Source: Elusimicrobiota bacterium (lineage in GTDB: Bacteria; Elusimicrobiota; Elusimicrobia; Elusimicrobiales; UBA9959). Taken from it: 64,000 bases of DNA. The notes below the pieces were generated by a model that did no database searches, was not told the DNA's origin, and saw only the letters and a list, made by a program, of their open reading frames with translations. This document shows positions 12,213 to 43,954 of this stretch, in pieces. Within the stretch, counting starts at the first letter, position 1; each line of letters begins with the position of its first letter. Location: positions 1 to 64,000 of the forward strand of contig DAIENX010000007.1 in assembly GCA_027340875.1 (NCBI GenBank). Direction: 5' to 3'. The translations under genes and the position numbers were made by a program.

Positions 12213-12247
12213 GAAGAAGGACGGGCACAGGCCCGTCCTTCTTCTTT
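12213..12247. terminator. Bidirectional terminator between convergent genes
   Basis: GAAGAAGGACGGGC/GCCCGTCCTTCTTC stem with A and T runs. Confidence 0.8.
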
Positions 12248-15121: not shown

Positions 15122-15188
15122 AATCCTGGAGCGGCCCCTCGGCCGCCTTTCTATGATACAAAAACGGGACGCGTTTTCGGCCGGCAGG

Positions 15189-15219
15189 AAAAGGAAAGCC
15201 CCGCCGGAGCGGGGCTTTC
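15189..15219 (-). terminator. Rho-independent terminator after ygeY
   Basis: GAAAGCCCCGC/GCGGGGCTTTC stem. Confidence 0.7.
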
Positions 15220-15240
15220 GGTCTTAACGCCGCCGGGCGC

Positions 15241-18121: not shown

Positions 18122-19528
18122 CTATTCGAAGCAGAACATCTTCATTATCTTTTCCGAGAGCGGCGCGCAGGCCTCCGGGCCGCGCGAGGAAGCCGCGCGG
18201 TAGCGCCAGTCCTCCCCTTTGCCGGCCCTGACGGCGCGGACGAAGTCCAGCATTTCCGGGATCAGGCAGGTCTCCGGGTTCATCAGCGGGTTCCAGCACC
18301 TCTTCGGCGACGCGGCCGTCAGCAGCTTGTAATATTCGCCGCAGAACGCGGCCCCGGACTTCGGGCGGGCCAGCTCCGCCCAGCCGGAGCAGAAGCCGTC
18401 GTACTTATTCCTCCCGTCCCTGAGCGCGGCGTAGGCCGAGAGGTACGGCAGGGCCGCCTCCTCGCAGGTACGCTTGAGGTCCGGATGTATGGAGCTCAGC
18501 GGAGCGCAGCCCTCCAGCGAGCCTTTCGAGAGGGAGACGCAGACGCCGTACTCCGCCAGCGCGTCCCACAGGTGCTGCTCCGGCATATGCCTGGCGTCGC
18601 CGGAATAGTTCGCTATGACGGTGGATACGTCCACCTTCCGGCCGGCGCACCTGTCCTCGCCTTTCGGCTGCCCGCCGCCGTCGCCGCTGTTGCGGTACTC
18701 GCGCAGCGCGGTGATGGCCTTGCCGCCGCGCATGTTCTTCAGCGCGGCTACGGCGGCCTCGCGCACGCGCGGCGAATCGTCCTTCAGCGCCACTATCGCG
18801 GCGTCCACGGCCGCCGGCTTGTCGATCATACCGAAGGCTTCCACCGCGTAGGTCCTGGCCAGCGGGTCCCTGTCCTTCATCATCTCCAGGGCGGCCCCGA
18901 AGGCCTTGTCCCTGTCTATCTGCACCAGCGCCCGCAGCGCCTTGGTGCGCACGTAGATGCCGGGGTCGCCCAGCAAAGCCGATACCGGCTTATAAGTGGA
19001 CGGCTCCGCTATCCTGCCCAAGGCCTGGACGGCCTTCTCCCTTATCTGCTCCTCCGGGTTTCTGAGGCTCTTCACGAGGAAGTCGACGGCCCGCTTGTCC
19101 CCTATAACGCCCAGCACCTTTATCTCCCACAGCATCGCGGCCGGGCCGCTCCGCTCCGCCGCGCGCAGTATGGCGGGCACGGCGTCCCCGCCCATGTCCT
19201 CGAGCGCCCTTTCGGCGGCGCCCCTTAATTCGGACTCGTCGGAACCGAGGAAGCCGATAAGGGCGGTCACGTTCCTCTCGCCGCGCGCCTTTACCAGGGT
19301 ATTCCTGGCGGCCTGGCGCTTCTTGTCGTCCGGAGACTCGAGCAGGCGCAGCAGGGCCTTCTCGCTCTCAGCGTCCAGCGAGGCGGCGCGCACCTCGCGC
19401 ATCGCGGCCTCCCTGACGGACCTGGCCTGCGCCGCCGGGGCGGCGGGCGCTTCTCCGGCCCGCGCCGGGACCCCGGCCGCGGCCAGCGCTATAGGGACCA
19501 TCAGCATGCGCAATACGGTTCTCTTCAT
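18122..19528 (-). CDS. Secreted HEAT-repeat protein with C-terminal Cys-rich domain
   Basis: AGGAG RBS, signal peptide, PBS-lyase-like HEAT repeats (VREAAVAAL), Cys-rich C-terminus. Confidence 0.85.
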   Translation of the reverse strand: MKRTVLRMLMVPIALAAAGVPARAGEAPAAPAAQARSVREAAMREVRAASLDAESEKALLRLLESPDDKKRQAARNTLVKARGERNVTALIGFLGSDESELRGAAERALEDMGGDAVPAILRAAERSGPAAMLWEIKVLGVIGDKRAVDFLVKSLRNPEEQIREKAVQALGRIAEPSTYKPVSALLGDPGIYVRTKALRALVQIDRDKAFGAALEMMKDRDPLARTYAVEAFGMIDKPAAVDAAIVALKDDSPRVREAAVAALKNMRGGKAITALREYRNSGDGGGQPKGEDRCAGRKVDVSTVIANYSGDARHMPEQHLWDALAEYGVCVSLSKGSLEGCAPLSSIHPDLKRTCEEAALPYLSAYAALRDGRNKYDGFCSGWAELARPKSGAAFCGEYYKLLTAASPKRCWNPLMNPETCLIPEMLDFVRAVRAGKGEDWRYRAASSRGPEACAPLSEKIMKMFCFE

Positions 19529-19552
19529 TTCTCCTCCTGGCGCTCCGGGACT

Positions 19553-20425
19553 TCAGGACCGTGGCAGTTCCACAGTTCCGAATCTTCTTATGTAGTCCGC
19601 GTACACGCCGTCGCACTCGCCGCGCATCGCGCAGCCGCGGCAGGCGGGTATACGCCTCCTCTCGGGAAGCTTCTTCCGGTCCGCTTTCCGGAAACGCCCC
19701 TTACCGGCCACGTACTGCCTGGCCTGGCGCTCGAACATCTCCACCCTGTCGCTGACCTCCCGGAAGAGGCACGGCACCGGCGCGTTTATCAGCGCGGCTT
19801 CCGGCTCCCCGGCGCGCAGGCATTCGATTATGACCGGCGCGGCGTCCTTCACCCTGGGGGTGTGCGGCATCTCCCCGGCCCGCTCTCCGACGTATATGAT
19901 GTTCCACTTCGTCATCCCCAGGCGTCCCAGCAGGGTCCTGATCCGCGGCAGGCGCGAGACGTTCTTCCTGACCACCGTGGTATTGGCCGAGATGTTGCGG
20001 AAGCCGGCGGCGCGCAGATTGGCCACGCCCTTCAGTATGCGGGCGAAGCCGCCCTTCGTGCCGGTGAGCCCGTCATGGACGGAAGCCCTGTCGCCGTGCA
20101 CCGAGAAGCGCACCTCGGTCACCCCCGCCTCCAGCAGGGCCGCGACGAACTTCCGGTCGGCGAACATCCAGCCGTTGGTGGTCAGCATGCGCTGCCTGAA
20201 CCCCAGCCTTTTCGCCGCCCCGAAGATCGCGAAAATATCCTTCCTCAGCGAGGACTCCCCCCCCAGCACGTCCACCGCCTCCGCGCCGGCCCGCCTGGCC
20301 TCCACCAGCTCCGCCAGTATGGCGCGGTGGCTCTTGTCCGGCGCCTTGCCGCGGTACTCCCTGTCCCAGCAGAAGCCGCAGGAGTTGTTGCAGGTGTAGC
20401 CGGTGATCAGCTTGAGCGACCTCAT
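19553..20425 (-). CDS. Radical SAM protein, HxsC-like
   Basis: CNNSCGFC, LGGE, TTNG, C-terminal CRGCAMRGECDG; ATGA overlap with upstream gene. Confidence 0.88.
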   Translation of the reverse strand: MRSLKLITGYTCNNSCGFCWDREYRGKAPDKSHRAILAELVEARRAGAEAVDVLGGESSLRKDIFAIFGAAKRLGFRQRMLTTNGWMFADRKFVAALLEAGVTEVRFSVHGDRASVHDGLTGTKGGFARILKGVANLRAAGFRNISANTTVVRKNVSRLPRIRTLLGRLGMTKWNIIYVGERAGEMPHTPRVKDAAPVIIECLRAGEPEAALINAPVPCLFREVSDRVEMFERQARQYVAGKGRFRKADRKKLPERRRIPACRGCAMRGECDGVYADYIRRFGTVELPRS

Positions 20426-21351
20426 CGCGCCCCCCCGCGCTTCCGGCCGGCCGGGGCCTTCTTGAAGCAGAAATAGGCGTCCAGCGTCCTGCCTGACTTC
20501 CCGGCCCCGTCCCCGGCCGCGAACAGCACCGGCGCCATCGTCATGCCGGCGCGCCTCGCGTAGGCGACGAGCGAGAGTATCTTCTGCAGGGCCGCCGGGC
20601 GCCCTCCGGCGGCGTAAAGCCCGCAGATCTCCCGCATCGCCGGGGTAAGATCGCTTATTCCGCCGGTCTCGTACACCTTGTAGGCCTTCCTCCGGCCGGA
20701 GCCGGCGCCGCGCATCTCGTAATAGAAGCACTTCTTTTCCAGCCCCAGCCCCGCCATCGTCCGCTTCTGCCAGGGCGGCACGCGCAGCCCGGCCGGCGCT
20801 TCCCGCCTGAAATAGAGCTTGAAGTCGCGGCCGCGGCCCGGCGTCAGGTCCAGACAGACGGCCGACAGCGCGTCCAGGTCCGCCTTGGACGGAAGCCTCT
20901 TCAGGCCGCAGGCCCCGGAAAGCAGGCCGGCCTTCAACCGCCCGTCATAGACGGGATAAAGTTCCTCGTGGTAGACCTTCAGCCGCGGGGCGTTCTGGCC
21001 GGTGCCCCAGTCCAGGCCCAGCGTGGTCTGATGGGCCGCGCCCAGCGCCGCGCCGGCCTTCAGGAAGCGTCCGAGCGCGGCCAGGTCGTAGCTGTCTCCG
21101 AAAGAAGCGGCATAGCGCATTATCACCCGGCCCAGCGCCCCGCGCTCGCCGAAATCGCTGACGCTGAAGCGGAAGGCCCCCGGATCGGAGGAGGAGACGC
21201 AGACGTCGAGCTTCTGGTTGAGCGGCAGCCATTCTCCCTTCACCCTGCCGGCGAACAGCCCGGCGATGGCGGCCAGGCCGGCCGGCGGGACCTGAGGGGC
21301 CCCCTCGCCGAGGAGCCTGAACAGGCCGGGCAGGGACCCCGCGCTCCGCAT
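20422..21351 (-). CDS. Hypothetical protein, possible ABBA/LynF-type prenyltransferase fold
   Basis: Repeated G/C-L-D...K-(V/L)-Y strand motifs (GLDW..RLKVY, CLDL..FKLYF); coupled within the operon. Confidence 0.6.
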   Translation of the reverse strand: MRSAGSLPGLFRLLGEGAPQVPPAGLAAIAGLFAGRVKGEWLPLNQKLDVCVSSSDPGAFRFSVSDFGERGALGRVIMRYAASFGDSYDLAALGRFLKAGAALGAAHQTTLGLDWGTGQNAPRLKVYHEELYPVYDGRLKAGLLSGACGLKRLPSKADLDALSAVCLDLTPGRGRDFKLYFRREAPAGLRVPPWQKRTMAGLGLEKKCFYYEMRGAGSGRRKAYKVYETGGISDLTPAMREICGLYAAGGRPAALQKILSLVAYARRAGMTMAPVLFAAGDGAGKSGRTLDAYFCFKKAPAGRKRGGAR

Positions 21352-22373
21352 CAGCGCCCCTCTATGTCGCTGGTAAGCTCGTTGTATTTCTTGAGCAGCC
21401 GCTTTTTGGCGAGGGCCTTGCGCATCTCTCCCGCGAACTCGGTGAACAGCAGGCCGGCCTTCACGTTGTTCCGGAGGTTGCCCACGATGTTGTTCTCGCG
21501 GTAGATGATGGACATGGCCCGCGTGTTGGACAGCCGGCCCGGGTGCAGCTTGTCTATGCTCAGCTCCGGGTCGGAGATATGGCCCAGGATGTAGCGGTTG
21601 CGCACGGCGTCGTCCTTGACCAGGTAGGCCAGGCAGGCGGAATAGATGTTGCCGTCGATGTTCACCGACAGCTCGGTGTTCATCGGCATCGGCGAAAGCC
21701 AGTTCTTAACGTTCAGCAGCGCCACGCCCTTGTCCTTCAGCGCGGCCACCGCCGCCGGCACCAGCTCCTTCAGCTTCTTCCTCAGCAGCTTCAGCTTGGC
21801 GTCGGTGAACTTGGGGCCGCAGGAGACCATTATCCAGACCTTCTTGAAGCCCAGCTCCACCAGCGAATTGAAGCTCTCCAGCAGCCGCGGCGCGGTATCG
21901 GGCGTGATCACGGTGTAGCAGTAGGCGTCCAGGCCGTTGCGGAAGATCATCGGCAGGTTCTTCACCACCAGCGGGTAGGTCTCGTCCTTGCAGCCCATCC
22001 GCGGCCTGTTCTTGTTGTGCGAGCGGCGGTCGCCGTCCAGGCTGACTATCAGCAGCACGTCGTGCTTCTTGAAATAGGCTATCTTCGCCTCGTCGAGCAG
22101 CGTCGCGTTCGTCGTCATGATGAACTTGACCGTCTTGCCCAGCGAGGCCGCCTTGCGCTCGCCGTACTCTATCGTCCTGCGGATCAGGTCGAACGGCAGC
22201 AGCAGCGGTTCGCCGCCGAAGAACTCCATCTTCAGCTCCTTGTCCTGCGAGCCGCAGAGCAGGTCCACAGCCTTGAAGAGGTAGTCCTCGGGTATATACT
22301 TGTTCTCGAAATGGACCTTGCAGTAAGTGCAGCGCAGGTTGCAGGCCCAGGTGGTCACGACTAGAAGGTACAT
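21351..22373 (-). CDS. Radical SAM protein (peptide-maturase type)
   Basis: CNLRCTYC, FFGGEPLL, TTNATLL, SLDG. Confidence 0.9.
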   Translation of the reverse strand: MYLLVVTTWACNLRCTYCKVHFENKYIPEDYLFKAVDLLCGSQDKELKMEFFGGEPLLLPFDLIRRTIEYGERKAASLGKTVKFIMTTNATLLDEAKIAYFKKHDVLLIVSLDGDRRSHNKNRPRMGCKDETYPLVVKNLPMIFRNGLDAYCYTVITPDTAPRLLESFNSLVELGFKKVWIMVSCGPKFTDAKLKLLRKKLKELVPAAVAALKDKGVALLNVKNWLSPMPMNTELSVNIDGNIYSACLAYLVKDDAVRNRYILGHISDPELSIDKLHPGRLSNTRAMSIIYRENNIVGNLRNNVKAGLLFTEFAGEMRKALAKKRLLKKYNELTSDIEGR

Positions 22374-22377
22374 GTTC

Positions 22378-24141
22378 TCATCCTATTTCCCCGGACCCGA
22401 ACCTGCCCAGGTACTCCGAGAAGACCCCGGGGCAGCGCCGGCAGGGGCCGCAGGAGGCGGGCCTCGTCCGGCCGAACTCGGCGGAGGAATTTATCTCATT
22501 ATAATAAAATAAGCCGTCCCGGAAGACCAGCAGCCTGGCGGCCGGCGCCTGCCTGAAACTGGAAGCTCCGGGGAACACGCCGCGCAGCCTGTCCACCACG
22601 CAGTCCGGGAAGAGCGTGAACTGGGCGCGTCCGGAAGCCCGCGAGCGGCGGTAGGCCTCTACCAGGCTGGCATATGAGGGCAGCGCGCTCAGGTACCGTT
22701 TCTCCCCGCCCGGGCCCTGGTTGTCCGGGTAGTAATGCCAGACGGAAAGGCCCCAGTCGCCGGAGTAGGAGCCGACCAGCCCGCCCAGGGCCGGCAGCTC
22801 CCGCGCGTTCTTCTTCAGCGCCACCGCGTGGAAGCTGACGTCCAGGCGGTCTCGCTTGGCCAGCCTCTCCATCAGCGATATCAGCTTCCGCCAGGAGCCG
22901 GGCCGGCCGGTGACCGAGTCGTGCGTCTTCGCGGAGGCGCCGTATATCGGCAGCTCCAGCCCGGTCACGCCCAGCTTCTCCAGACCGTCGAGCGCCGCGT
23001 CGTCCAGCGCGAGGCCGGTGGTCCAGAGCCTGATCTTCCGGTAGCCGGCGCCGCGGCAGCGCCGCAGGAGCTCACCCAGCGCCGGGAACCTGTCGGCCCT
23101 GTCCCTGCCCCAGATATTCAGGGTCCTGTCCTTGTTCACCACGGAGAGGAACCTGCCCAGAACCGGAGACCCCGGGTCGAAGTCCAGCTTCTCCCGCGCC
23201 AGCCGGTGGTACTGCCTGCCGCGTATGACGCGCGAGTCGAAGGCGCAGGTGAAATCGCTGGCCCCGTACTGCAGGTCTATCGCCGCCAGGAAGTCCCGGC
23301 CGGCGGAGGGCTTTTCGCCGGCGAGGACCGCGTCGGGCATCACGAGGCGTCCGCCGCCTACGGCGTCGGAGTAGAGGTACCTGTTGCGCCTCAGCTCGTC
23401 TATGCGGCTGGCGGGCGGCAGGAAGCCCAGGTCGCCGCCCAGGTCCTCCACGAGGACCCTGGTCGATAGCCCGGCCATGCGGGCGCGCACGGCTCTAACG
23501 GCCGAGACGAAGCCTTTCCGGTCCAGCAGGCCGCGCGGCGCGGCGCCGCCGGGATAGCCGGCCAGCGGCCTGGCCAGCGTGATGAAGGAGAGGCCGAAGC
23601 CGTCGAGCAGGGAGAGGACGGCGCCGAGCGACGCGGCGTTGACCCGCGTCACCGGCACGGCCGCGCCCACTTCCCTGATGCCGGCCGTTCTGGCCGCGCG
23701 CAGGCCGGCGAGGTTCTCCGCGAAGGCTTCGCGCCCGACGCCGCAGACGCGCGCGTAGGTCTTCCCGTCGGCGGCCGGCACCGAGACTATGGCGTAGCCC
23801 AGCCCCGCCGAGGCGAGGCCGGCGGCCAGGCCGGGGCGCAGCAAGCCGCGGCCGTTGGTGGACAAGCCTATGGTGGAGTAGCCCATGGCGCGGGCCGCCG
23901 CCACGAACCCCGGCAGGCCGGGGTGCGCGGCCGGCTCCCCGCCGGTGAACTCCACGTGATCGAGGCCCATGGACCTGCCGTATTTGAGCCCGGCCAGCAC
24001 CTTGCCGGCAGGGGCCAGGGCGCCGGACAGCCCGCAGGCGCAGTAGCCGCAGCGGTTGTCGCAGGCGTCGGAAACGGAAAGGGAAAGTCTGCTGAGGCTT
24101 TCCCCGGAAACGCCTCCCGTGGGAACGGCTTCTTCAGCCAC
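22378..24141 (-). CDS. Tandem radical SAM protein; second domain lacks CX3CX2C
   Basis: CDNRCGYC/TGGEP/STNG, then a second barrel-like unit (WTTG, HDSVTGRPGSW) and C-terminal CGPCRRCPG. Confidence 0.8.
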   Translation of the reverse strand: MAEEAVPTGGVSGESLSRLSLSVSDACDNRCGYCACGLSGALAPAGKVLAGLKYGRSMGLDHVEFTGGEPAAHPGLPGFVAAARAMGYSTIGLSTNGRGLLRPGLAAGLASAGLGYAIVSVPAADGKTYARVCGVGREAFAENLAGLRAARTAGIREVGAAVPVTRVNAASLGAVLSLLDGFGLSFITLARPLAGYPGGAAPRGLLDRKGFVSAVRAVRARMAGLSTRVLVEDLGGDLGFLPPASRIDELRRNRYLYSDAVGGGRLVMPDAVLAGEKPSAGRDFLAAIDLQYGASDFTCAFDSRVIRGRQYHRLAREKLDFDPGSPVLGRFLSVVNKDRTLNIWGRDRADRFPALGELLRRCRGAGYRKIRLWTTGLALDDAALDGLEKLGVTGLELPIYGASAKTHDSVTGRPGSWRKLISLMERLAKRDRLDVSFHAVALKKNARELPALGGLVGSYSGDWGLSVWHYYPDNQGPGGEKRYLSALPSYASLVEAYRRSRASGRAQFTLFPDCVVDRLRGVFPGASSFRQAPAARLLVFRDGLFYYNEINSSAEFGRTRPASCGPCRRCPGVFSEYLGRFGSGEIG

Positions 24142-24988
24142 GGCGCCTCCGTGCCACCAGGAATTTAACCATCTCCACCGCGTAAGACTTTACGAAGCCG
24201 GGGCAGGAGACGGAATGCGGGCAGGCGGAGCAGACCCCGGCGGGCTTCACCCGCAGGCGCGGCTGGAAATCGGCCCCGGAGACCTCCCCGGCGGGGCAGG
24301 GCAGGCCCAGCTTCTCCGCCACGCAGAGCGGCACCGCCCCGCCGGCAGGCAGCATGCACCTGAGCCCCAGCTTCCGGCGGAAGCCGGCTATGGCGGAAAG
24401 CGAGCGCAGCGCGGCGGCCGCGTCGGGTATCAGCCAGCGCCTGGCCCGGACGCGCGCGCAGTCCGGCTCCAGCAGAGAAAGCACGATGTCCTTAACTCCG
24501 TATTTCTTCCTCAGTTCGCGCACCAGGGCAGGCGCGGAGGACTGGTTGCCGGAATAGACCAGGAAATTGACGGCGGTCCTTATCCCGGCGCGGCGCAGGT
24601 TCTTCAGCGCGGCTTCCTTTTTGGCGAAGCCGCCTTTTACCCCGGCGAGAGCGTCGTATCTCTCCGGGGCCGATTCGAAGAAGCTGAGCACGACCTCGTC
24701 CAGGCCCGCCCCGGCCAGCTCCTCCAGGTAATCGGCGGAGGCCAGCCTGAGGCCGTTCGTCAGCAGCGCCACGTACTTGCCGCCCTTCTTCAGCCGGCGC
24801 ACGAGGCCGGGCAGGCCGGGATGCAGCGTGGGCTCGCCGCCGGTCACGTTCACCCGCGCGGGCCCGGGCTCGGCGGCCAGGGCGGCGGCCTGCCTGGCGG
24901 CCCCGTCCTTCCGCTTCACGCCGCCGGCGTCGCAGAACAGGCAGTCCTGGTTGCAGCCGCAGGAAAGTACCAGGCGGGAGGTCTTCAT
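24134..24988 (-). CDS. Radical SAM protein, HxsC-like
   Basis: CNQDCLFC, TGGEPTL, PLC, CSACPHSVSCPG; ATGA overlap. Confidence 0.88.
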   Translation of the reverse strand: MKTSRLVLSCGCNQDCLFCDAGGVKRKDGAARQAAALAAEPGPARVNVTGGEPTLHPGLPGLVRRLKKGGKYVALLTNGLRLASADYLEELAGAGLDEVVLSFFESAPERYDALAGVKGGFAKKEAALKNLRRAGIRTAVNFLVYSGNQSSAPALVRELRKKYGVKDIVLSLLEPDCARVRARRWLIPDAAAALRSLSAIAGFRRKLGLRCMLPAGGAVPLCVAEKLGLPCPAGEVSGADFQPRLRVKPAGVCSACPHSVSCPGFVKSYAVEMVKFLVARRRRG

Positions 24989-27143: not shown

Positions 27144-27147
27144 AGTT

Positions 27148-28077: not shown

Positions 28078-28079
28078 AG

Positions 28080-34366: not shown

Positions 34367-35076
34367 ATGTTGTACTTCACGTAATTGGGCGCGCGGTCCT
34401 CGCGCACCCGGCTGTCCACGGCCCGCTGCTTCCGCGGCCTGGCCCCGTCCGGCCTGAGCGCGGCGTAGTCCACGTGCGTGTCCGTCTCGTTCTCCTTGAG
34501 GTCCCAGACCGCGCATTTCAGCCCGAGCGCCATCATCCCGGAGACGGTCTCCTTTATCCTGCCCTGGTTGGCCTTCAGGCGCAGCGTGTGCATCTCTATC
34601 CTAGTGCCGGGAAAGGACTTTATGTTCTTTATGGCCTTCAGCAGGGCCGCGTAGCTGCCTTTCTTCCTGGTCACGGCGTCGTGCACGGCCGCGTCCGGCC
34701 CGTAGACCGGCAGCAGGAAGGCGTTGACCCCGGCCGCGACCAGCGCGGCCGTCAGCCGGCGGCTGCGCAGCTTGACGCCGTTCGACATCAGCTCTATATA
34801 GGCGAAGCCTTCCTTCACTCCCATCCTGACCACGGACTCCAGCAGCCACGCGGGGGCCATCGTGGGCTCGTCGCCGCCGAGGCAGAGCCGCCTGACTCCG
34901 CGCCGGCGGAGCACCCGCATCAGCGCGAGGAAGCGTATCAGCACCTCGCGCCACCGCTCCTCGGTGAAGGTGAAGGAGGTCTTGTGCGGGTGCCTGTTCC
35001 GCTGGCAGAAGACGCAGTCGATGTCGCAGCCGAACGGGAACGCCAGCAGCAGCTTGTCCTCCTTCCTGGCGTTCAT
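34345..35076 (-). CDS. Short radical SAM protein without the C-terminal Cys motif
   Basis: CDIDCVFC, GGDEPT, MSNG, HDAVT; ATGA overlap. Confidence 0.8.
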   Translation of the reverse strand: MNARKEDKLLLAFPFGCDIDCVFCQRNRHPHKTSFTFTEERWREVLIRFLALMRVLRRRGVRRLCLGGDEPTMAPAWLLESVVRMGVKEGFAYIELMSNGVKLRSRRLTAALVAAGVNAFLLPVYGPDAAVHDAVTRKKGSYAALLKAIKNIKSFPGTRIEMHTLRLKANQGRIKETVSGMMALGLKCAVWDLKENETDTHVDYAALRPDGARPRKQRAVDSRVREDRAPNYVKYNICTERTY

Positions 35077-36059
35077 GCGGCCTTCACCTCCGTTATGGGA
35101 CGGAAGAAAGGGGCCTGCTCCGGGAAGGCCTCGAGATACTTCCGGAAGATGCCTCCGCAGGAGCGCCGCAGCGCGCAGCGGCCGCAGGACTTCAGATAGA
35201 CGCGCCGCCGCGTCGGGCGCAGCGAGACCGTCTCCTTCAGGCCGGCGCGCCCGCCGGGGAGCGCCGCCCTCTCCACGGTCAGCCGCGGCGAGTAGTAGAG
35301 GTCGTTGGAAAGGTCGTAATGACCGTTCAGCGAACAGGCCGGCGCGCCGAAGAAGCGCAGCGTCACGCCGAACAGCGCGGCCTGCTCCCGCAGGTCCCCT
35401 ATGCGCCGGCCTATGGCGGTGAGGTCCGGAGCCAGCGAGGCGTAGTCCTCGCAGGCGCCGCCCTCCGGGGCCGGGTTGGAGATCATGTAATGCCGGACGA
35501 ACCCAGAGCGGGAGACCAGGCGCAGGATGTCCGAGACCAGCTTGAAGTTCTTTTTGACGGCCACGGTGTTGACCATCAGGAACAGCCTGCCGCCGCCGGC
35601 CTTGCCCAGGTTGTCCAGCGCGGCCATGGCGTCGTCGAAGCTGCCCTTCCTGCCGGTCAGCGCGTCGTGTATCTTGGCCGTAGGTCCGTGGCAGGAGAGC
35701 ATGGCCTCGTCCAGCAGCGGCGCGGTACGGCGGACGAAAGCGGGATCGGCGAAGGCGAGGCCGTTGGTGGTGACGCTGGTCCTGAACCCAAGCGCCCTGG
35801 CCGCACCGAGGGCGGCCGGCAGCGCGGCGCACAACGACGGCTCTCCTCCGGTGAAAGTGACGTGGGAGAAGCCGGCCCTGCGTTTCTCGCGCAGGATGCC
35901 TGCTATCTCCGACCCCGTCAGGTCCAGCGAGCCGAACCGGCGCAGCCTGTTCCGCTCGCTGCAGAACAGACAGCTGTTCTCGCAGGTGTAGGAAACGTGT
36001 ATCTCCAGCCGCTCCACCGCGGCTTTCTTCGCTCCAGCGCCGTGTACCGTTCGGCTCAT
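35073..36059 (-). CDS. Radical SAM protein, HxsC-like
   Basis: CENSCLFC, TGGEPS, TTNG, APAC, CGRCALRRSCGG; ATGA overlap. Confidence 0.88.
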   Translation of the reverse strand: MSRTVHGAGAKKAAVERLEIHVSYTCENSCLFCSERNRLRRFGSLDLTGSEIAGILREKRRAGFSHVTFTGGEPSLCAALPAALGAARALGFRTSVTTNGLAFADPAFVRRTAPLLDEAMLSCHGPTAKIHDALTGRKGSFDDAMAALDNLGKAGGGRLFLMVNTVAVKKNFKLVSDILRLVSRSGFVRHYMISNPAPEGGACEDYASLAPDLTAIGRRIGDLREQAALFGVTLRFFGAPACSLNGHYDLSNDLYYSPRLTVERAALPGGRAGLKETVSLRPTRRRVYLKSCGRCALRRSCGGIFRKYLEAFPEQAPFFRPITEVKAA

Positions 36060-37183
36060 GCGACGCACCTCCCGGAACGGACCGGCTTCAACGCCGAGAA
36101 ACCCCTGGCCATCACGGTCCATATCCTGGCTCCGCGGCAGGCCGGGCCCAGCCGGCAGCGTCGGCAGGCGGAACCCTTCACGGTCAGCCTCTCCGCTATG
36201 AAGAACTCGGCCACCTTCATCAGGCCGGCCCTTGGCGTTATCTTTTTCACGGCCCTCCGCTTCTCCGGCAGGCAGGCCGGCGCCGGGACCGTCTTAAGGG
36301 AACCTTCCGCCCGCAGCAGCTCGAGGTCCGAGCAGAACTGTGCCATCACGCAGGACGCGCACCGCGCCCCCTTGCAGTGCATCTCCTCTCCGGCGTACAG
36401 GAAGGCCTCCAGCGGCCGGCGCATCCCCCGCACCTCGTCCATCAGCTTGCCGGGGTGCTGTATATACCGCTCGTTGCCCTCCAGCACTGCGGCGGGGAAG
36501 CGGTTCGTCCAGACGTGGGCGTTGACGGATTCGGAGAAGCGGAACACCTTTTCCAGCACCTTCCTCTTGGAAGCCGGGTCATAGGAAAGTTTCTTCCAGT
36601 TCTCCCACGCCCTGCCGAAAGGTATCAGGTTCAGCAGGTCGTACTCGTCCACGCCGAGGCGGTGCAGCAGGCCGACTATCTCGCGGACGGAGTCGGCGTT
36701 AAGCCTGTTCACCACGATGTCGCTGCTGACTATCAGGCCCGGCACCTTCTTGGCGTTGGCGATGGCCAGCAGGGTCTGCGCGAAAGCGCCGGGGACCCCG
36801 ACCAGCGCGTCGTGCTGCCCGGAGGTGGCCCCGTGCACGGAGAACGTTATCTCGGTGAGCCCGGCGGCCACAGCGCGCTTCAGAAAGCCATCGTAGCAGA
36901 ACATCCGCCCGTTGCTGATGGCCTGCACGTGGGTATAGCCGAGCTTCCTCGCCTTCGCCACTATGGCCGTGAATTTGGGGTGTATCGTGGGCTCTCCGCC
37001 GCTCAGCACCACCCGGCGGCAGCCCTCCGCCCGGCCCCGCCTCAGGTCGGCCTCTATCTCTCCGAGCGGCAGATGTTCGCCGCAGATGGAGTCCGCGTCC
37101 AGACAGAAAAGGCAGCGGTTGTTGCAGGCCCTGGTCAGCCTGACCCATTTCCGCTTTTCCGGGGCGGCGGTTCTTTCCGTCAT
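36056..37183 (-). CDS. Radical SAM protein, HxsC-like, two C-terminal Cys motifs
   Basis: CNNRCLFC, SGGEPT, SNGRM, CASCVMAQFC, CRRCRLGPACRG. Confidence 0.9.
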   Translation of the reverse strand: MTERTAAPEKRKWVRLTRACNNRCLFCLDADSICGEHLPLGEIEADLRRGRAEGCRRVVLSGGEPTIHPKFTAIVAKARKLGYTHVQAISNGRMFCYDGFLKRAVAAGLTEITFSVHGATSGQHDALVGVPGAFAQTLLAIANAKKVPGLIVSSDIVVNRLNADSVREIVGLLHRLGVDEYDLLNLIPFGRAWENWKKLSYDPASKRKVLEKVFRFSESVNAHVWTNRFPAAVLEGNERYIQHPGKLMDEVRGMRRPLEAFLYAGEEMHCKGARCASCVMAQFCSDLELLRAEGSLKTVPAPACLPEKRRAVKKITPRAGLMKVAEFFIAERLTVKGSACRRCRLGPACRGARIWTVMARGFSALKPVRSGRCVA

Positions 37184-37187
37184 AGTT

Positions 37188-38135
37188 CTATCCAAGAAGT
37201 ATCCTCTCTGCCAGCCTGTCCGCGGCCATCCCGCCGGCCACGGCCTTGGCCCCGAAAAGCTTCTTCGCCATGCCGGAGTAATCAGGACGGCGTCCGCTCC
37301 CGGCGCCCAGAGCCTCCAGCCCGCCGGCCAGCATCTGCGCGGCCTGGCCCGGGTCCCTCGCGGCAAGGACGAGGTTGGAGTGATAGCACCTGCCGTCAGT
37401 GTCCACCGTGGTCCCGGGATTGAAAAGCGGCACCGGGCCTTCGCGCGAGGCGTTCTCGATGACAACGGCCCCGGAATCGGCCAGTTCCCTGATATGCCTC
37501 AGCGCCCTGGCGAGCTTGGCGAGGGCGGCCGGCGTCCATTCCCGGTAATAGGCCGGCAGGACGTTGACCCTGGGCGGTCGTCCGCGCGAAGCGGCTATCA
37601 CGCGCTTCAGGACCCCGAGCGAAGAAAGCGGGTCGCGCTCGGGCAGCAGCAGGTTCCAGATCAGGTTGGGCAGGGCCGCGAACCTGCGGCTGACGCTCAC
37701 CGAGGAGTTAATGTTCACCTGCACCCACGGCCGGGCCGAGAAATACCGGAGCTTCGCCGCGTCCAGCAGCAGGCCGTTCGTGCCCACCTCCGCGCGGCCG
37801 CGGTAGCCGGCCGCCTCCAGCATGCCTATGCCAGTCCTCACCAGCCCGAAGCGCAGCAGCGGCTCCCCGCCGAAAAACTTGACCGCGCCGCCCCCCAGGG
37901 CGGCGGAACAATACTGCTTTATAGCGCTTTTCAGGACCGCCGCGGGCATGTCCGCCCGCCCGGTCGCGACGGGACATTCGGGGCACGCCGACTGGCAGCG
38001 CCGGGTGAGGATAAGGGTCAGCTGCGGGGCCGGCGCGCCCCCGCGGCAGGCCGGAAGGGCCGAGTTACTGGCCCTTCGCCGGTTCCTTTCCTTTGGTCTG
38101 CTTGCCCTGCGGCTGTACGCCCATCCTCTTGTCAT
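37188..38135 (-). CDS. Radical SAM protein
   Basis: CQSACPEC, FFGGEPLL, GTNGLLL; start codon uncertain. Confidence 0.8.
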   Translation of the reverse strand: MTRGWAYSRRASRPKERNRRRASNSALPACRGGAPAPQLTLILTRRCQSACPECPVATGRADMPAAVLKSAIKQYCSAALGGGAVKFFGGEPLLRFGLVRTGIGMLEAAGYRGRAEVGTNGLLLDAAKLRYFSARPWVQVNINSSVSVSRRFAALPNLIWNLLLPERDPLSSLGVLKRVIAASRGRPPRVNVLPAYYREWTPAALAKLARALRHIRELADSGAVVIENASREGPVPLFNPGTTVDTDGRCYHSNLVLAARDPGQAAQMLAGGLEALGAGSGRRPDYSGMAKKLFGAKAVAGGMAADRLAERILLG

Positions 38136-39114
38136 CTTCAGCCTTCTGCTTTACCATGTCGGCCATTATCTTGTGGCGGAACGAGCTCGTGCAGTAGCCG
38201 GTGGCGAGCTTCTTGGCCAAAGGTGCGCAAACCGACGGGTCCCTGGACTGCAGCACGTGGAGCAGCCATTTCTCGTCCGGGGTGGAATCCCCCCTCACCA
38301 GCGCGGCGCTGAGCTGGCATTCTTTCTTCCGCGGGCCGCTCAGTTTGCCGCAGGCCGCCCGCCCGTTGATGAACAGGAAGTTGGATTCGCAGTTGGGCGG
38401 CAGACCGAGCGAGCGGCACTCCGGGGTCCGCCTCTTCGCGATAGAGTCGGTAATGAACCGACAGAAGTCGGGGCTGGGACGCCCCCCCCTGAACGCGTTG
38501 TTAACGAACTTCTCGCATTTCCCGTCGTTCGTCTTCCTGTTCAGGGCCGAATACATGAAATCGTAGTAATCGGCGGCGAAACAGACCCTCTCCAGGTTCT
38601 GCTGGACGCAGTCGAGACGGCCACCGCTGATAAGCCGGCAGACGCCGTAGTCCAGGAAGAGATCGAGTATAGTCTCATCCTCGGGCATGTTGCTGTTGGT
38701 ATTGAAGAAGAACCGGAAGTTCTTGTCGAAATGCCTGACGATAGCGTCCGGGTTGTCCGAGAAGGCCTTTATACAGTCGCTGTCGGCCGCGTTCACCGGG
38801 ACGTCCTCTGGCTGGGAATAATACCCGCCGGAGGCGCTTTCGTACTGGCCGCTCTGGGGGATATTGCTCTGGGTATCGGTCGACGCCTGGCTGACCAGCG
38901 CGGCGGCGTCCGGAGGAAGCGCCTGGCCGACCTCCTGTTGCTGGGCCGCGGGGTAGGCCGGAGCCGCCGGCTGCTCGATGCCTATCTTCGCGGCGTTCCT
39001 GTCGGTGACCATCTTCAGGGCGAAAAGCACGCCCATCAGCGCCACCAGCAGGCCGATAAGCAGCTTCGGGGACATCGCCCCGGGTCTGTAGCCTTTCCTC
39101 ATCGCGCTCACCAT
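38065..39114 (-). CDS. Membrane-anchored extracytoplasmic Cys-rich protein
   Basis: N-terminal TM, Ala/Pro/Gln linker, Cys-rich domain; start could be 39114, 39102 or 39075. Confidence 0.8.
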   Translation of the reverse strand: MVSAMRKGYRPGAMSPKLLIGLLVALMGVLFALKMVTDRNAAKIGIEQPAAPAYPAAQQQEVGQALPPDAAALVSQASTDTQSNIPQSGQYESASGGYYSQPEDVPVNAADSDCIKAFSDNPDAIVRHFDKNFRFFFNTNSNMPEDETILDLFLDYGVCRLISGGRLDCVQQNLERVCFAADYYDFMYSALNRKTNDGKCEKFVNNAFRGGRPSPDFCRFITDSIAKRRTPECRSLGLPPNCESNFLFINGRAACGKLSGPRKKECQLSAALVRGDSTPDEKWLLHVLQSRDPSVCAPLAKKLATGYCTSSFRHKIMADMVKQKAEDDKRMGVQPQGKQTKGKEPAKGQ

Positions 39115-39404
39115 TGCCCGTGGCTGCCGTGCGAACCGTGCGAACCGTGCGAGCCGTGGCTGCTGTGCGAACCGTGCGAACCGTGCGAGGCGTGACTCAC
39201 GTGGCCCGACGCGTTGCCGCTGCTGTGGAAGTAGTTTGCATGCGCTAGCGCGTCAGCGTGCTCTGTCACCACTCCGACGGCGGTGGCTACCAGTCCGAGG
39301 ACGACCGCGGCCTTGACCACGTCGCTCTTGACTATCTTGCCCTCCTCGCTCGAAAGGAAGCGGGAAAGGTCTACCGACAGTTTCTTTTTCTGTTTTCCGG
39401 CCAT
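39108..39404 (-). CDS. hxsA: His-Xaa-Ser repeat precursor peptide (HxsA-like)
   Basis: 98 aa; nine tandem HxS triplets plus HGQW at the C-terminus; directly downstream of hxsB. Confidence 0.92.
   Translation of the reverse strand: MAGKQKKKLSVDLSRFLSSEEGKIVKSDVVKAAVVLGLVATAVGVVTEHADALAHANYFHSSGNASGHVSHASHGSHGSHSSHGSHGSHGSHGSHGQW
39117..39203. repeat. Coding 9-bp tandem repeat (GTGCGAACC variants) encoding the HxS array
   Basis: Visible 9-nt periodicity with synonymous variation. Confidence 0.85.
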
Positions 39405-39423
39405 ATTTCGCCCCGTTCTCGGT

Positions 39424-40893
39424 CTATACGTGTATCCCGGCCGCTCCGGCGCTGCTGCCGGCCCAGGATTCGAACAGCTTCCTAACCTTCGGCTCGCGCA
39501 GCCGCGCGAACAGGTAGTCCATCACTCCGGTGTAGATCTCGCACCGGAAGTTGGGATGATGCATGTACAGGTCGTTGTGCTCCGAATAGTTGAAGACCGG
39601 GCATACGCCGCAGTAGGGCTTGTAGACGCAGGAGGAGCAGAGCGTCTGTATGTCCGTGACCGACGCGGTGACCACGCATTTCACCACTGAGCTCGACGCC
39701 AGGTCCGCGTAGGTCTCCTTCTTCAGGTCGCCCATGCAGAACGAATCGGTCCCCTCCGCCGCCAGCATGCGCCCCTCGTCGCAGGTGAAGACGCGGCCGT
39801 CGTAGTCGTAGGCGATCTGGCCTATCCCCGCCCCGCAGGGGGACCGGAGGTCCATGAAGTTCGGGTCGGTGCCGGTCAGGATCTTCCTCAGGAATATCCT
39901 GGCCGTGTGCTCGACCAGGGAGGCCTTCTTCTTCAGGTTCAGCTCTATGATGTAGTCCAGCGCCTTCGTGTAGAACTCTATGTACTCCCGCGCCGTGTAG
40001 CCTATCCCAGGCCAGGCCTTCTTCGCCGCGCCGAACGGATTGAGGAAGCGCAGGAAGATGGAGCGGGCGCCGATGCGGACGTATTCGTCCACTATGTCCT
40101 TGTGGCGCCCCAGGGACTGCTGCGTCACCGTGAGCAGGGCGTCCGGCCCGTTCTTGGTCCTGGCCGTGCGCTTCTTGATGGTCTTCCACCACTTCACGAC
40201 CTGGGCGTGGCTGCTGCCGCCGGTGGCCACCCGGTTCTTGTCGTGCAGGTCGGCGGGACCGTCCAGCGAGGTGCAGATGGCGACGTTGTGCTTGAGCAGG
40301 AAGTTCAGCCTCTCTCCGGTCATGGCCGACAGGTTGGTGACCAGGCTCAGGCTCACCTTCTTATCGAAGGTCTTCGTGCGGGCGGCGGCCTCGTTGACCA
40401 CGAACTCCAGCACGGGCCAGTTGAGCAGCGGCTCCCCGCCCTGGAACTCTATGGTGATGTTGTCGGCCGGGGAAGCGAAGATGGCGTCCAGCACCCTGGA
40501 GGCCGTCTCCCTGTTCATGTCCAGGCCGCGGCCGCTCCTCTTGGACGAGGCGTGGCAATACACGCAGTCGTGGTTGCAGCGCCGCGTCAGCACGGCTATG
40601 TGCAGCGCCGGGCCGGAGAAGAGGAAATGGTTCTTCTCGAGCCACCTCTCGGCCAGGCCGGAAAAGTCCATGTAGTCGCGGACGAGGCCCTTGCGGGAGA
40701 GGTCCTTGTACTCAGCCGAGTCCTTGTCCAGCTTGCCGGCCGCCAGCCGCGAGAAGACATCGCCGGAGATGAAGGCGTGCTCGCCTATGTCGTTGGTGAC
40801 CAGGTATTCGTCGCCCCACTTCTTGTAGCGCAGAAAACCGGTCTTCTTCGGGTCGAAGTCAATTCTTTCTTTTTGCTTTTCTGGCCTTCGCAT
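39424..40893 (-). CDS. hxsB: His-Xaa-Ser system radical SAM/SPASM maturase HxsB
   Basis: CNHDCVYC, IEFQGGEPLLN, DLRSPCGAGIGQIAYDYDG, TCDEGRM, CSSCVYKPYCGVCPV. Confidence 0.9.
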   Translation of the reverse strand: MRRPEKQKERIDFDPKKTGFLRYKKWGDEYLVTNDIGEHAFISGDVFSRLAAGKLDKDSAEYKDLSRKGLVRDYMDFSGLAERWLEKNHFLFSGPALHIAVLTRRCNHDCVYCHASSKRSGRGLDMNRETASRVLDAIFASPADNITIEFQGGEPLLNWPVLEFVVNEAAARTKTFDKKVSLSLVTNLSAMTGERLNFLLKHNVAICTSLDGPADLHDKNRVATGGSSHAQVVKWWKTIKKRTARTKNGPDALLTVTQQSLGRHKDIVDEYVRIGARSIFLRFLNPFGAAKKAWPGIGYTAREYIEFYTKALDYIIELNLKKKASLVEHTARIFLRKILTGTDPNFMDLRSPCGAGIGQIAYDYDGRVFTCDEGRMLAAEGTDSFCMGDLKKETYADLASSSVVKCVVTASVTDIQTLCSSCVYKPYCGVCPVFNYSEHNDLYMHHPNFRCEIYTGVMDYLFARLREPKVRKLFESWAGSSAGAAGIHV

Positions 40894-41320
40894 TTTTGTT
40901 TTCTTCCCACGGTATGGCTATTCCCAGAGCATCGGTCTTGTAGTCGCCGCTCTCCGCCTCTTTCAGCAGCTTCTCGATCTCCTTCTCCAGCTCCGCGTCC
41001 AGCACCGGGGCGGCGGCCGCCGGTTCCGCGGGTCTGGGCTGCGCGGAAAGAAGGGCCCTGACCACTATCCTCTCGCGCAGGGCCTGGTTCACGGCCGAGA
41101 CCTTGAGGCGGAAAGCGTGGTGCAGCAGTTCGTTGCGGAACTCGCCCTCCAGGTCGCGGCCCGCCGGGAACTTGCCGTTCTTGGACTCCAGCACGGCCGA
41201 GAGAGCGCCGCCCTTGTCCTTGCCCAGCTTCACGTACGCGGCCTTGGAGAACGTGTATGCCGCGGCATAGACGCACTCGATAGGGTAAACGGAAAGATCT
41301 ATCTTCACCTGTATTTTCAT
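40859..41320 (-). CDS. hxsD: His-Xaa-Ser system protein HxsD
   Basis: DLSVY...VYAAAYTF, EFRNELL...R pattern; position before hxsB. Confidence 0.8.
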   Translation of the reverse strand: MKIQVKIDLSVYPIECVYAAAYTFSKAAYVKLGKDKGGALSAVLESKNGKFPAGRDLEGEFRNELLHHAFRLKVSAVNQALRERIVVRALLSAQPRPAEPAAAAPVLDAELEKEIEKLLKEAESGDYKTDALGIAIPWEENKNAKARKAKRKN

Positions 41321-41339
41321 GCTGATCCTCTAACGCAGT

Positions 41340-41903
41340 TTATCTCAACCTGCAGCAAAGCATTTCGCCAGTAGCCTGTATACCGCCGGGAGGGCCCATC
41401 TGGTACATCTGGTTGCCGACGCGGGCGGCCACTACGGCGGTCTTGGCGCCGAGACACATCGTGACGACGCCGTAAGAATAGCTCTGCCAGGAACAGTCCA
41501 GCGGGACCGTCGGGTCGGACCAGCGGGCCAGGCCGTTGCCGTCCGAGGTAAGCAGCCGGCCGTTGGCCTGCGTGCCGTCCTGCAGCTCGAAGCTGCCGAC
41601 CACGTGGAGTTTTGCGGCCGGGGAAGGGGTGCCTATTCCAACATTGCCGCCGTCCCTGGCCAGCAGGGTCTGGCTGGTGGTAAGTATGCTGACGTAGCCG
41701 CCGTAGGGGGCAGGGTAATAAGTGGTCAGCGTAAGCGTCTCGGAGCCGATGAAGCCCGGATGCCAGCAGATGAACATGAGGGCCATCAGCGCCACCACCG
41801 TCTTCCGGTGCGTCCTGCCGAGCCTGTCCAGCCAGGCAGGCAGGCCGGGCTGGTGAAGCCAGTCCAGCGAGAACCTTATAACGATATCGCGGTTATTTTT
41901 CAT
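41340..41903 (-). CDS. Membrane-anchored protein with fibre-like GNVGIGT motif; first gene of the operon
   Basis: TM segment, ETLTLTTYYPAPYG, GNVGIGTPSPAAKLHV, LTSDGNGLARW. Confidence 0.75.
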   Translation of the reverse strand: MKNNRDIVIRFSLDWLHQPGLPAWLDRLGRTHRKTVVALMALMFICWHPGFIGSETLTLTTYYPAPYGGYVSILTTSQTLLARDGGNVGIGTPSPAAKLHVVGSFELQDGTQANGRLLTSDGNGLARWSDPTVPLDCSWQSYSYGVVTMCLGAKTAVVAARVGNQMYQMGPPGGIQATGEMLCCRLR

Positions 41904-42095: not shown

Positions 42096-42124
42096 ATTAT
42101 AGCAGAAATCTTTCCGATTTTCAA
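42096..42124 (-). promoter_or_regulatory. Sigma70 promoter of the Hxs/Nif-like operon
   Basis: TTGAAA-17nt-TATAAT with extended -10 TG. Confidence 0.8.
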
Positions 42125-43925: not shown

Positions 43926-43954
43926 TTGACAGCCGCCGGGTTTCGTCTTATAAT
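43926..43954 (+). promoter_or_regulatory. Consensus sigma70 promoter
   Basis: TTGACA (43926-43931), 17 nt, TATAAT (43949-43954). Confidence 0.88.

Follow-up and report, generated by a model that had tools for sequence, protein, structure and literature searches.

The window analysed here is a stretch of 64,000 nucleotides from the genome of an Elusimicrobiota bacterium (assembly GCA_027340875.1, contig DAIENX010000007.1, positions 1 to 64,000). It contains a 24-kb operon of 23 consecutive minus-strand genes, running from 41903 (or 41936) to 18122, in which genes of the His-Xaa-Ser (Hxs) families stand together with an array of radical S-adenosylmethionine (SAM) genes and with genes for a nitrogenase-like reductase. 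We report the gene content, packing and family memberships of this operon, and the statistics of co-occurrence and linkage between Hxs and reductase genes in other genomes. The listing of open reading frames (ORFs) and their translation bore out the one-strand, 23-gene order given in an earlier note on this DNA: g01, an HxsD-like gene, HxsB, a His-Xaa-Ser (HxS) repeat peptide, a Cys-rich protein, five radical SAM genes, a NifH-NifD-like fusion and a NifK-like gene, followed by three radical SAM genes, a membrane peptidase, four radical SAM genes, a 309-residue protein (g21), one radical SAM gene and a HEAT protein.

The genes are closely packed, the longest intergenic gap being 24 nt. Six junctions are 4-nt overlaps of the ATGA type (the second gene starts at 36059, 35076, 29871, 25935, 24988 or 20425), which confirms the many ATGA overlaps seen before, and the remaining ones have 1 to 71 nt of overlap or 2 to 24 nt of spacing. 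Gene order in the closest relative, G079, follows that of the window from g01 through g17, a colinear block of 17 genes that has the nitrogenase-like genes in its middle. The block ends with g17, and the last six genes of the operon are not common to G079. The DNA of the window was also found, as short contigs only, in three other runs from this study, with every bin covered.

Our profile search with the Hxs families placed HxsB and HxsA4 over their NCBIfam cut-offs and the HxsD-like protein just under:

40859..41320, minus strand: g02, HxsD-like small protein (TIGR03976, 48.2 bits against a cut-off of 50)
39424..40893, minus strand: g03, HxsB, radical SAM/SPASM maturase (TIGR03978, 489.4 bits against a cut-off of 370)
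39108..39404, minus strand: g04, HxsA4 repeat peptide, 98 amino acids (NF038313, 64.4 bits against a cut-off of 55)

The match of g02 spans residues 7-93 and positions 1-87 of the 90-position profile. That of HxsB covers residues 21-478, with CX3CX2C at residue 106 and the SPASM cysteines present. HxsA4 consists of a Lys-rich N-terminus, the sequence FLSSEEGK, a hydrophobic helix, an H-x-S tail (mostly Ser-His-Gly) and a terminal GQW. The motif FLxSEEGK, ahead of a single hydrophobic helix, is common to HxsA4 homologues of three phyla, and alignment showed L17, E20, G22 and K23 to be invariant in 11 of 11 of them. A Pfam search of 12 HxsA4 sequences for Flp-pilin gave no match, and the only matches were to Collagen, from the Gly-X-Y periodicity. 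The Ser-His-Gly tail is a strict Gly-X-Y repeat, and the scores of three homologues (29.6, 27.7 and 27.2) are at or above the Pfam Collagen cut-off of 27.2. Homologues lie at L084:687-1028, L085:5842-6168, L090:5985-6416 and elsewhere.

The HXS system of E. coli has been described as an antiphage system, in which HxsB, HxsC and HxsD process HxsA, a change of +8 Da is introduced in an HxS motif, and mature HxsA acts in the periplasm (Li et al., Nat Commun 2026, PMC13128918). The "unknown chemistry" that had been ascribed to His-Xaa-Ser loci is therefore outdated. According to the same paper, 99.7% of the HXS systems counted there are in Pseudomonadota, and the order hxsD-B-C-A is found in 99.6% of HXS systems. 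The operon in the window resembles the canonical system in having an HxsB-type maturase over the cut-off, an HxsD-like protein, an H-x-S-repeat substrate and HxsC-like radical SAM proteins, and N-terminal processing of its substrate would be expected as well. It differs in several respects. Canonical HxsA has more than 200 amino acids and five repeats (PMC13128918), whereas HxsA4 has 98 amino acids, a Ser-His-Gly run and a hydrophobic helix, and no peptidoglycan-binding domain. In place of the single HxsC the operon encodes about 12 HxsC-like paralogues, none of which comes near the HxsC cut-off. The order is not hxsD-B-C-A but g01, D, B, A and then 19 further genes, and additional components are present: g01, Cys-rich proteins, an A24-like peptidase and the nitrogenase-like reductase. 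PADLOC (2023) gave only generic viperin-type radical SAM matches and HEAT matches in the window.

Besides HxsB, the operon encodes thirteen radical SAM proteins:

37188..38135, minus strand: g06, divergent radical SAM protein (Radical_SAM 21.6 against 29.5; CX3CX2C at residue 47)
36056..37183, minus strand: g07, HxsC-like radical SAM (best NCBIfam HxsC4, 94.8 bits against a cut-off of 500)
35073..36059, minus strand: g08, HxsC-like radical SAM (Pfam and NCBIfam matches and motif; ATGA overlap with g07)
34345..35076, minus strand: g09, short HxsC-like radical SAM, 243 amino acids (Pfam and NCBIfam matches and motif)
33347..34366, minus strand: g10, HxsC-like radical SAM (Pfam and NCBIfam matches and motif)
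28984..29871, minus strand: g13, HxsC-like radical SAM (HxsC4, 123.5 bits against a cut-off of 500)
28080..28994, minus strand: g14, HxsC-like radical SAM (HxsC, 103.9 bits against 267.9, reaching the profile end)
27148..28077, minus strand: g15, HxsC-like radical SAM (NCBIfam profile match)
24985..25935, minus strand: g17, HxsC-like radical SAM (HxsC4 126 bits, HxsC 106.3 bits; G079 orthologue 585 bits)
24134..24988, minus strand: g18, radical SAM protein (best match MoaA-type, 67.3 bits; HxsC 57.9)
22378..24141, minus strand: g19, two-domain radical SAM, 587 amino acids (two Radical_SAM stretches)
21351..22373, minus strand: g20, radical SAM like the N-terminal part of PapB/HxsB, without the SPASM part (PapB 143 against 340; HxsB 113.6)
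19553..20425, minus strand: g22, HxsC-like radical SAM (HxsC4, 92.1 bits)

The earlier count of 14 radical SAM enzymes held: CX3CX2C is present in all 14 proteins, HxsB included, and 13 of them pass the Pfam Radical_SAM cut-off, g06 being the exception. The second half of g19 is radical SAM-like but without CX3CX2C (cluster-less), and nine proteins end in CX2CX5CX3 followed by a mostly aromatic residue. HxsC4 or HxsC was the best NCBIfam family for 10 of the 13 proteins other than HxsB, at 58 to 126 bits, the highest score for either family coming from g17. On these profile scores, the ten proteins are HxsC-like paralogues, not HxsC.

Three relatives from the family of the window (G143, G153 and G085) have no reductase. 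They keep g01, HxsD, HxsA4 and the membrane peptidase. HxsB is present in one to three copies, and another 8 to 10 radical SAM genes form a similar array. Since the peptide, the peptidase and the array are all retained in these reductase-free relatives, the radical SAM array belongs to the peptide system, and its persistence with the HxS peptide favours a peptide as the substrate of the array. Genes similar to g07 (at least 318 bits) and g15 (at least 296 bits) were seen only beside nitrogenase-like genes among the fetched loci and regions.

The nitrogenase-like part of the operon consists of two genes:

31138..33354, minus strand: g11, NifH-NifD-like fusion, 738 amino acids in one ORF (Fer4_NifH 221.8 bits; Oxidored_nitro 54.6 bits)
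29868..31157, minus strand: g12, NifK-like subunit, 429 amino acids (Oxidored_nitro 141.2 bits)

Both domains assumed earlier were thus found by Pfam in g11 (Fer4_NifH at residues 4-265, Oxidored_nitro at 379-628), and Oxidored_nitro in g12. All curated cut-offs lie above the scores of g11 and g12 (NifH 213 against 394, CfbC 222 against 402, BchX 177 against 331, BchL 170 against 345, BchN 54 against 324). The P-loop GKGGIGKS of g11, C93 and C129 are the same in all 11 sequences compared, and the two cysteines correspond in the alignment to the cluster cysteines of solved NifH. Also invariant are H337 and, in the D-like part, C342 and C417. For g12, C42, D38, H54, D55 and H402 showed no variation among 32 sequences. 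The invariant cysteines of the D-like and K-like parts are thus limited to C342, C417 and C42, and these, with the few invariant Asp and His residues, would fit one simple Fe-S cluster, probably at the D/K interface. No NifB was found in the genome, which is 92% complete (best score 20.5 bits against a cut-off of 343.65).

In a quick tree of 84 NifH-domain rows (the careful search being unfinished, and references for groups I to V not included by name), the NifH domain of the window falls within a 20-row clade (SH-aLRT 97) together with both copies of Elusimicrobia bacterium GWA2_69_24. The methanogen CfbC-type sequences fall on the other side, and the branch of the window is long (1.43). Because GWA2_69_24 is a genome named by Meheust et al., we assign the genes by this placement to the "Group VI" type, in agreement with the earlier suggestion of nitrogenase paralogues of the kind reported by these authors. 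Meheust et al. 2020 (bioRxiv 10.1101/765248) proposed that NflH, NflD and NflK of Group VI reduce a tetrapyrrole, and a 2026 review (PMC13474568) repeats the proposal. The genes in the window are like those described in that g11 keeps the P-loop and both cluster cysteines, the D- and K-like parts are very divergent with few conserved cysteines, no NifB was found, and many radical SAM genes surround the reductase. They are unlike them in that the surrounding radical SAM genes are here assigned to the HxsA4 peptide system, and in that NifH and the NifD-like part are fused ("fused" and "fusion" do not occur in the text of PMC13474568 as available). Such a fusion, of 738 to 874 amino acids, is found in many independent assemblies: in the window, at L001, L003, L005, L012, L013, L015 and L016, and in the regions of G079, G111, G239, G181 and G139. 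NifH and NifD-like are separate genes in Myxococcota (L011). The review gives about a third of genomes with "only NflH and NflD" (PMC13474568), and this third could partly reflect loci with a fused HD gene plus K that were counted as two genes.

The link between the reductase and HxsB proved strong at the genome level. HxsB was over the cut-off in 24 of 25 genomes holding Group VI-type loci, against 0 of 14 control genomes. Our Elusimicrobiota sample comprised 251 genomes, 32 with HxsB and 15 with a NifK-like gene. HxsB was present in 13 of the 15 NifK-like-positive genomes, against 19 of the 236 others. A fourteenth positive is G203, in which HxsB is split over two frames and HxsA4 lies 1.8 kb from the NifK-like gene. 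This frame-split HxsB (L102, G203:C76, 12732-14029), beside an intact HxsA4 and nitrogenase-like genes, is due to a sequencing error or is a decaying gene. The Myxococcota sample, pooled over lineages, comprised 301 genomes, 38 with a NifK-like gene and 111 with HxsB. Here HxsB was found in 37 of the 38 NifK-like-positive genomes against 74 of the 263 others, and in the 38th, which carries two HxsA4 genes, HxsB is partial and lies where a contig ends. Fisher tests gave p = 2e-11 for Elusimicrobiota and 3e-17 for Myxococcota, uncorrected for kinship.

Physical linkage was found as well. Both genes occur in 14 Elusimicrobiota genomes. In 11 of these a single contig carries HxsB and the NifK-like gene, at a distance of 1.8 to 17.4 kb, and in the remaining three they are on different contigs. 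In all eight linked Elusimicrobiota regions that were fetched, an HxsA4-type ORF stands next to HxsB, HxsD and g01. HxsB and the reductase genes are also adjacent in two metagenome-assembled genomes labelled Deltaproteobacteria (G009 and G016), and in an archaeal locus (L025) HxsA4 and HxsB occur together with a weak NifK-like gene and a NifH from the clade of the window. The expectation in the earlier note that homologous Nif-like loci carry an HxS ORF was thus borne out in whole genomes, and in Elusimicrobiota by linkage.

Several results weigh against a functional connection between the reductase and the peptide. The same expectation failed in the immediate surroundings of the reductase genes. 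We fetched 80 loci around relatives of g11 (+/-10 kb), 23 of them with a strong NifK-like partner, and scanned all 80 by regular expression and phmmer for HxS repeats, HxsB and HxsD. Within these flanks HxsB was present at only 3 of the 23 Group VI loci (L001, L009 and L019) and an HxS-repeat ORF at only 1 (L009). We did not take these low counts as a refutation because the whole-genome searches pointed to flanks that are too short or contigs that are broken. Related genomes are not independent, and the Fisher p values therefore overstate the case. Strict counts in family f7 gave no association, with HxsB in 4 of 6 reductase-positive and 4 of 4 reductase-negative genomes. Genomes with HxsB and no reductase are frequent (19 of 32 in Elusimicrobiota, 74 of 111 in Myxococcota), which indicates that the peptide system does not need the reductase and is much commoner than it. 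In one Elusimicrobiota genome, G177 (97% complete), the reductase stands among at least 10 radical SAM genes and no HxsB or HxsA4 was found; the contig ends inside the radical SAM array. None of the array proteins of the window reaches the cut-off of HxsC (TIGR03977, 267.9) or HxsC4 (NF038332, 500).

In Myxococcota the two gene sets are usually unlinked: 123 kb, 1.07 Mb, 2.5 Mb and 3.3 Mb separate HxsB from the reductase in the four genomes that have the two on a single contig. The reductase genes of G011 form a three-gene unit with no radical SAM or tetrapyrrole gene within 10 kb, and of the neighbours of this stand-alone Myxococcota unit (RseC/MucC and others) none recurs in other loci. The parts of the system are scattered in G011. 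On this complete Myxococcota chromosome, a lone HxsA4 (L101, G011:C1, about 9583-9870) is separated from HxsB by 3.1 Mb and from the nitrogenase-like genes by 0.2 Mb. The reductase is an accessory, an add-on found almost only in genomes that already hold the peptide system.

The other genes of the operon encode a putative peptidase, a protein of predicted prenyltransferase fold and three further proteins:

41340..41903, minus strand: g01, exported protein, "fibre-like" (N-terminal hydrophobic helix, SE.LT.TTYYP.P.G.Y invariant, C-terminal CC)
38065..39114, minus strand: g05, Cys-rich protein with an N-terminal membrane helix (start uncertain: 39114, 39102 or 39075)
25932..27143, minus strand: g16, A24-like (GXGD) intramembrane aspartyl peptidase (Pfam matches of relatives, Asp motifs, predicted structure)
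20422..21351, minus strand: g21, ABBA aromatic-prenyltransferase fold, 309 amino acids (predicted structure)
18122..19528, minus strand: g23, exported HEAT-repeat protein with a C-terminal Cys-rich domain (HEAT_2, 101.1 bits)

No Pfam match was obtained for g16 itself, up to E 10. Its relatives scored 28.1, 26.5 and 25.8 with Peptidase_A24 (PF01478, cut-off 26.5), which 2 of the 9 scanned reach, and D25 as well as G102-D103 in WPAGDAK are invariant in 12 of 12 sequences. The top structural match of the g16 model (pLDDT 72) was FlaK (3s0x_B, Z 11.1 over 164 residues; the next match had 6.7), and Foldseek against the PDB gave no match at E 0.001 or better. The earlier label of an A24 peptidase is thus favoured by the Asp motifs, the relatives and the FlaK match, but not by Pfam or Foldseek searches with g16. 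Like the short A24 peptidases (FlaK, TadV/CpaA), g16 has the D25 and D103 motifs, and FlaK is its best structural match. Unlike them, it has an extra C-terminal part of about 200 amino acids and no Pfam match, and lies in a radical SAM/Hxs cluster, not in a pilus or archaellum cluster. A homologue of g16 is present in Hxs loci without nitrogenase-like genes.

The prenyltransferase-like label of g21 was supported by the predicted structure (pLDDT 75.6, pTM 0.79), which matches the ABBA fold with a Foldseek probability of 1.00, E 1.4e-8 to 1.7e-6 and TM 0.66. The matches include LimF, PirF, KgpF and PatF, and the fold class contains enzymes that act on peptides or His (LimF, PirF, KgpF and FunA among the structural matches). 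Unlike these enzymes, g21 has no Pfam match up to E 10, its identity to ABBA prenyltransferases is 8 to 18%, and it occurs only in close relatives of the window: a large protein search gave five homologues, and none was present in the fetched loci.

The start of g01 at ATG 41903 was chosen by alignment with a relative, and an ATG at 41936 is also in frame. We found no Pfam or NCBIfam match for g01, and Pfam up to E 10 gave nothing useful. The Protein Atlas gave no cluster scoring at least 0.9, and every TM-score was below 0.5. What remains of the "fibre-like" label is a set of weak structural hints. Homologues of g01 adjoin HxsD at L001 and in 10 of 11 related regions of Elusimicrobiota that hold HxsA4. 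An orthologue of g05 is found at the same place in G079. The Cys-rich domain of g05 is shared, with aligned cysteines, by the C-terminal third of g23 (18122-18700, minus strand; BLASTP E 7e-7). Neither Pfam nor NCBIfam gave a family match for g05, and Pfam searches to E 10 with g05 and the g23 tail placed this domain in no known family. Since both g05 and g23 begin with a hydrophobic segment, they are probably exported.

A gene-free stretch of 318 nt lies 5′ of the operon and contains a promoter-like site, followed by a leader of about 190 nt:

42096..42124, minus strand: promoter-like site (TTGAAA, 17 nt, TATAAT with upstream TG; 11 of 12 consensus matches)

One upstream promoter had been claimed before. 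One promoter-like site was indeed found, but as a match to the consensus it does not prove a promoter; three sigma-70-like sites were found in the 3-kb region scanned, against 1.3 expected. An Rfam search of the window and of the 5′ leader gave no match. A riboswitch in the leader was considered and dropped, the leader being without an Rfam match and not conserved in G079. Directly upstream of the promoter-like site and on the same strand is a B12-binding radical SAM gene (42255-43733, minus strand). A perfect sigma-70 consensus (12 of 12) is present at 43926-43954 on the plus strand, 5′ of a radical SAM/SPASM gene (44169-45656). Further upstream of the operon are a PIN-PhoH fusion gene (48558-49985, minus strand) and then an ORF of 993 amino acids without a Pfam match (50118-53099, minus strand).

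On the other side of the operon, three HemN-like radical SAM paralogues (12246-13709, minus; 13709-15121, minus; 16615-18114, plus) surround an M20 peptidase gene, and their homologues recur near the Group VI loci L002, L006 and L015 and in G097. Genes of arginine type (amino-acid-kinase-like, carbamoyltransferase, M20 peptidase) at 7013-16431 stand next to the operon, and such genes (600 to 830 bits) also adjoin the Hxs/nitrogenase-like region in G239, G139 and G181. These shared neighbours in several relatives suggest that the island keeps one chromosomal place within the family. HxsB was present in 18 of 18 sampled genomes of the family of the window, unlike the usual patchy spread of defence genes. 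With the same arginine-type neighbours in several relatives, the Hxs/reductase region resembles a stable trait more than it does a mobile defence island.

By analogy with the processing of HxsA by the HXS proteins of E. coli, we read the operon as an enlarged "type 4" Hxs maturation operon with an optional, ATP-driven reduction of the peptide by the Group VI module, a reading to which we give about even chances. HxsA4, with its FLxSEEGK leader motif, hydrophobic helix and H-x-S tail, would be the substrate. HxsB, the HxsD-like protein and about a dozen HxsC-like paralogues would install covalent modifications on its repeats, and the A24-like membrane peptidase would trim the precursor. The presence of an A24-type peptidase in the cluster and of an invariant motif ahead of the helix makes it our guess that cleavage occurs after the Gly of FLxSEEGK. 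Such prepilin-like processing stays a guess because no Flp-pilin match was found and the motif is not directly at the helix: in contrast to the substrates of short A24 peptidases, the presumed site EEG/K is about 8 residues ahead of it. In the lineage of the window only, g21 may add a further decoration. The Group VI module, made up of the NifH-NifD-like fusion and the NifK-like subunit, would be an optional extra step, most likely the ATP-driven low-potential reduction of an unsaturated or heteroaromatic group made on the peptide by the radical SAM enzymes. The product could be an envelope or metal-binding peptide, an effector like that of HXS defence or a peptide-derived cofactor. The hyper-modified peptide or cofactor suggested in the earlier note is thus one possible outcome, and an exported, processed protein effector is another. 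Its claim that the real substrate is a peptide fares well for the array, which travels with the HxS peptide; for the reductase, action on the peptide is what we infer.

It is possible, and we put it forward tentatively, that Group VI enzymes in general are ATP-driven reductases of a ribosomal peptide, reducing the rings of unsaturated or heteroaromatic cross-links that HxsB- and HxsC-type radical SAM enzymes would make in the Ser-His-Gly repeats of HxsA4, as DPOR and CfbCD reduce pyrrole rings. The genes of the window share with DPOR, COR and CfbCD the two-component ATP-dependent design, in which a NifH-like reductase works with a catalytic part. A single simple [4Fe-4S] cluster is probably present in that part, with three Cys and an Asp or His as its ligands. 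They differ from them in scoring below the curated cut-offs and in having no tetrapyrrole gene context.

Of the other explanations, the one that survives best is that the nitrogenase-like module supports the radical SAM array and never touches the peptide, either as an ATP-driven, low-potential source of electrons for the many [4Fe-4S] clusters or as a NifEN/NifH-like scaffold for a metallocluster (for the enzymes or for the His-rich peptide). Such a role accounts for the reductase's dependence on the Hxs system no less well than reduction of the peptide does, and fourteen radical SAM enzymes in one operon need reductant. The His-rich tail of HxsA4 could bind metal, and in nitrogenase biosynthesis NifB (a radical SAM enzyme), the NifEN scaffold and NifH do cooperate (PMC13474568). 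However, relatives with arrays of the same size have no nitrogenase-like genes, and all the characterised family members named in PMC13474568 reduce a substrate. A scaffold is further disfavoured by the NifB search, with its best score of 20.5 bits, and by the three invariant cysteines of the D- and K-like parts, which are few for the scaffold of a complex cluster. We consider a supporting role unlikely on the whole.

The published view, that Group VI reduces a tetrapyrrole or another small molecule for a new cofactor and that the Hxs genes are neighbours with a separate job, seems improbable to us. The nearest characterised relatives (DPOR, COR and CfbCD) reduce tetrapyrroles, CfbC is the best match of the NifH domain, and the reductase genes stand alone in Myxococcota. 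The B12-binding and HemN-like radical SAM genes that flank the operon and recur near other Group VI loci, and the presence of hemB and hemC in the genome, also speak for a tetrapyrrole and against a peptide; Meheust et al. arrived at their proposal from the same cues. A search of the genome (92% complete) gave no HEM4 (uroporphyrinogen-III synthase), which we did not count as absence. But other members of the family cleave C-S bonds of small sulfur compounds (PMC13474568), and the family as a whole is therefore not tied to tetrapyrroles. There is also no tetrapyrrole gene in the operon or within 10 kb of the G011 reductase genes, hemB and hemC are on another contig, and the surrounding radical SAM genes are HxsC-like and remain with the peptide when the reductase is absent. 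HemN-like radical SAM enzymes also act as methyltransferases on peptides. A tetrapyrrole substrate gives no reason for the presence of Hxs genes in 14 of the 15 reductase-positive genomes of Elusimicrobiota and in 37 or 38 of the 38 of Myxococcota.

Least probable is that two or more independent systems merely share a radical SAM-rich island and co-occur through ancestry and habitat: both gene sets cluster in a small number of lineages (families f1, f5 and f7), the strict f7 counts show no association, at least five further radical SAM genes lie in the window outside the operon and related genomes share the same chromosomal neighbourhood, but overlapping start and stop codons join the Hxs, reductase and peptidase genes into one unit, the reductase genes are in the middle of the 17-gene block common to G079, and the pairing recurs with differing gene orders in Elusimicrobiota, Myxococcota and an archaeon.

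Our full-text literature search, whose scope excluded the supplements of Meheust et al., found no paper linking Hxs and nitrogenase-like systems. As far as searched, the link between Hxs and Group VI is new to the literature, although both systems are separately known. The main text of Meheust et al. does not contain the word "peptide", the available text of PMC13474568 contains it twice in unrelated contexts, and neither of these texts mentions a peptide precursor.

An enzyme family so far assumed to reduce tetrapyrroles may thus serve a peptide pathway. If the reductase acts on the peptide, nitrogenase-family chemistry would extend from N2, tetrapyrroles and C-S compounds to proteins. Should Group VI enzymes in general prove to reduce a ribosomal peptide, they would be the first nitrogenase-family enzymes acting on a protein, and the "tetrapyrrole cofactor" assignment of the whole group would be wrong. 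The operon offers a concrete and cheap test case for this, with a 98-residue candidate substrate and its enzyme set encoded together. Our results also indicate that His-Xaa-Ser systems are not confined to Pseudomonadota. A larger, multi-enzyme version is present in every sampled genome of one uncultivated family, and because of this distribution the enlarged version may serve a purpose other than phage defence.

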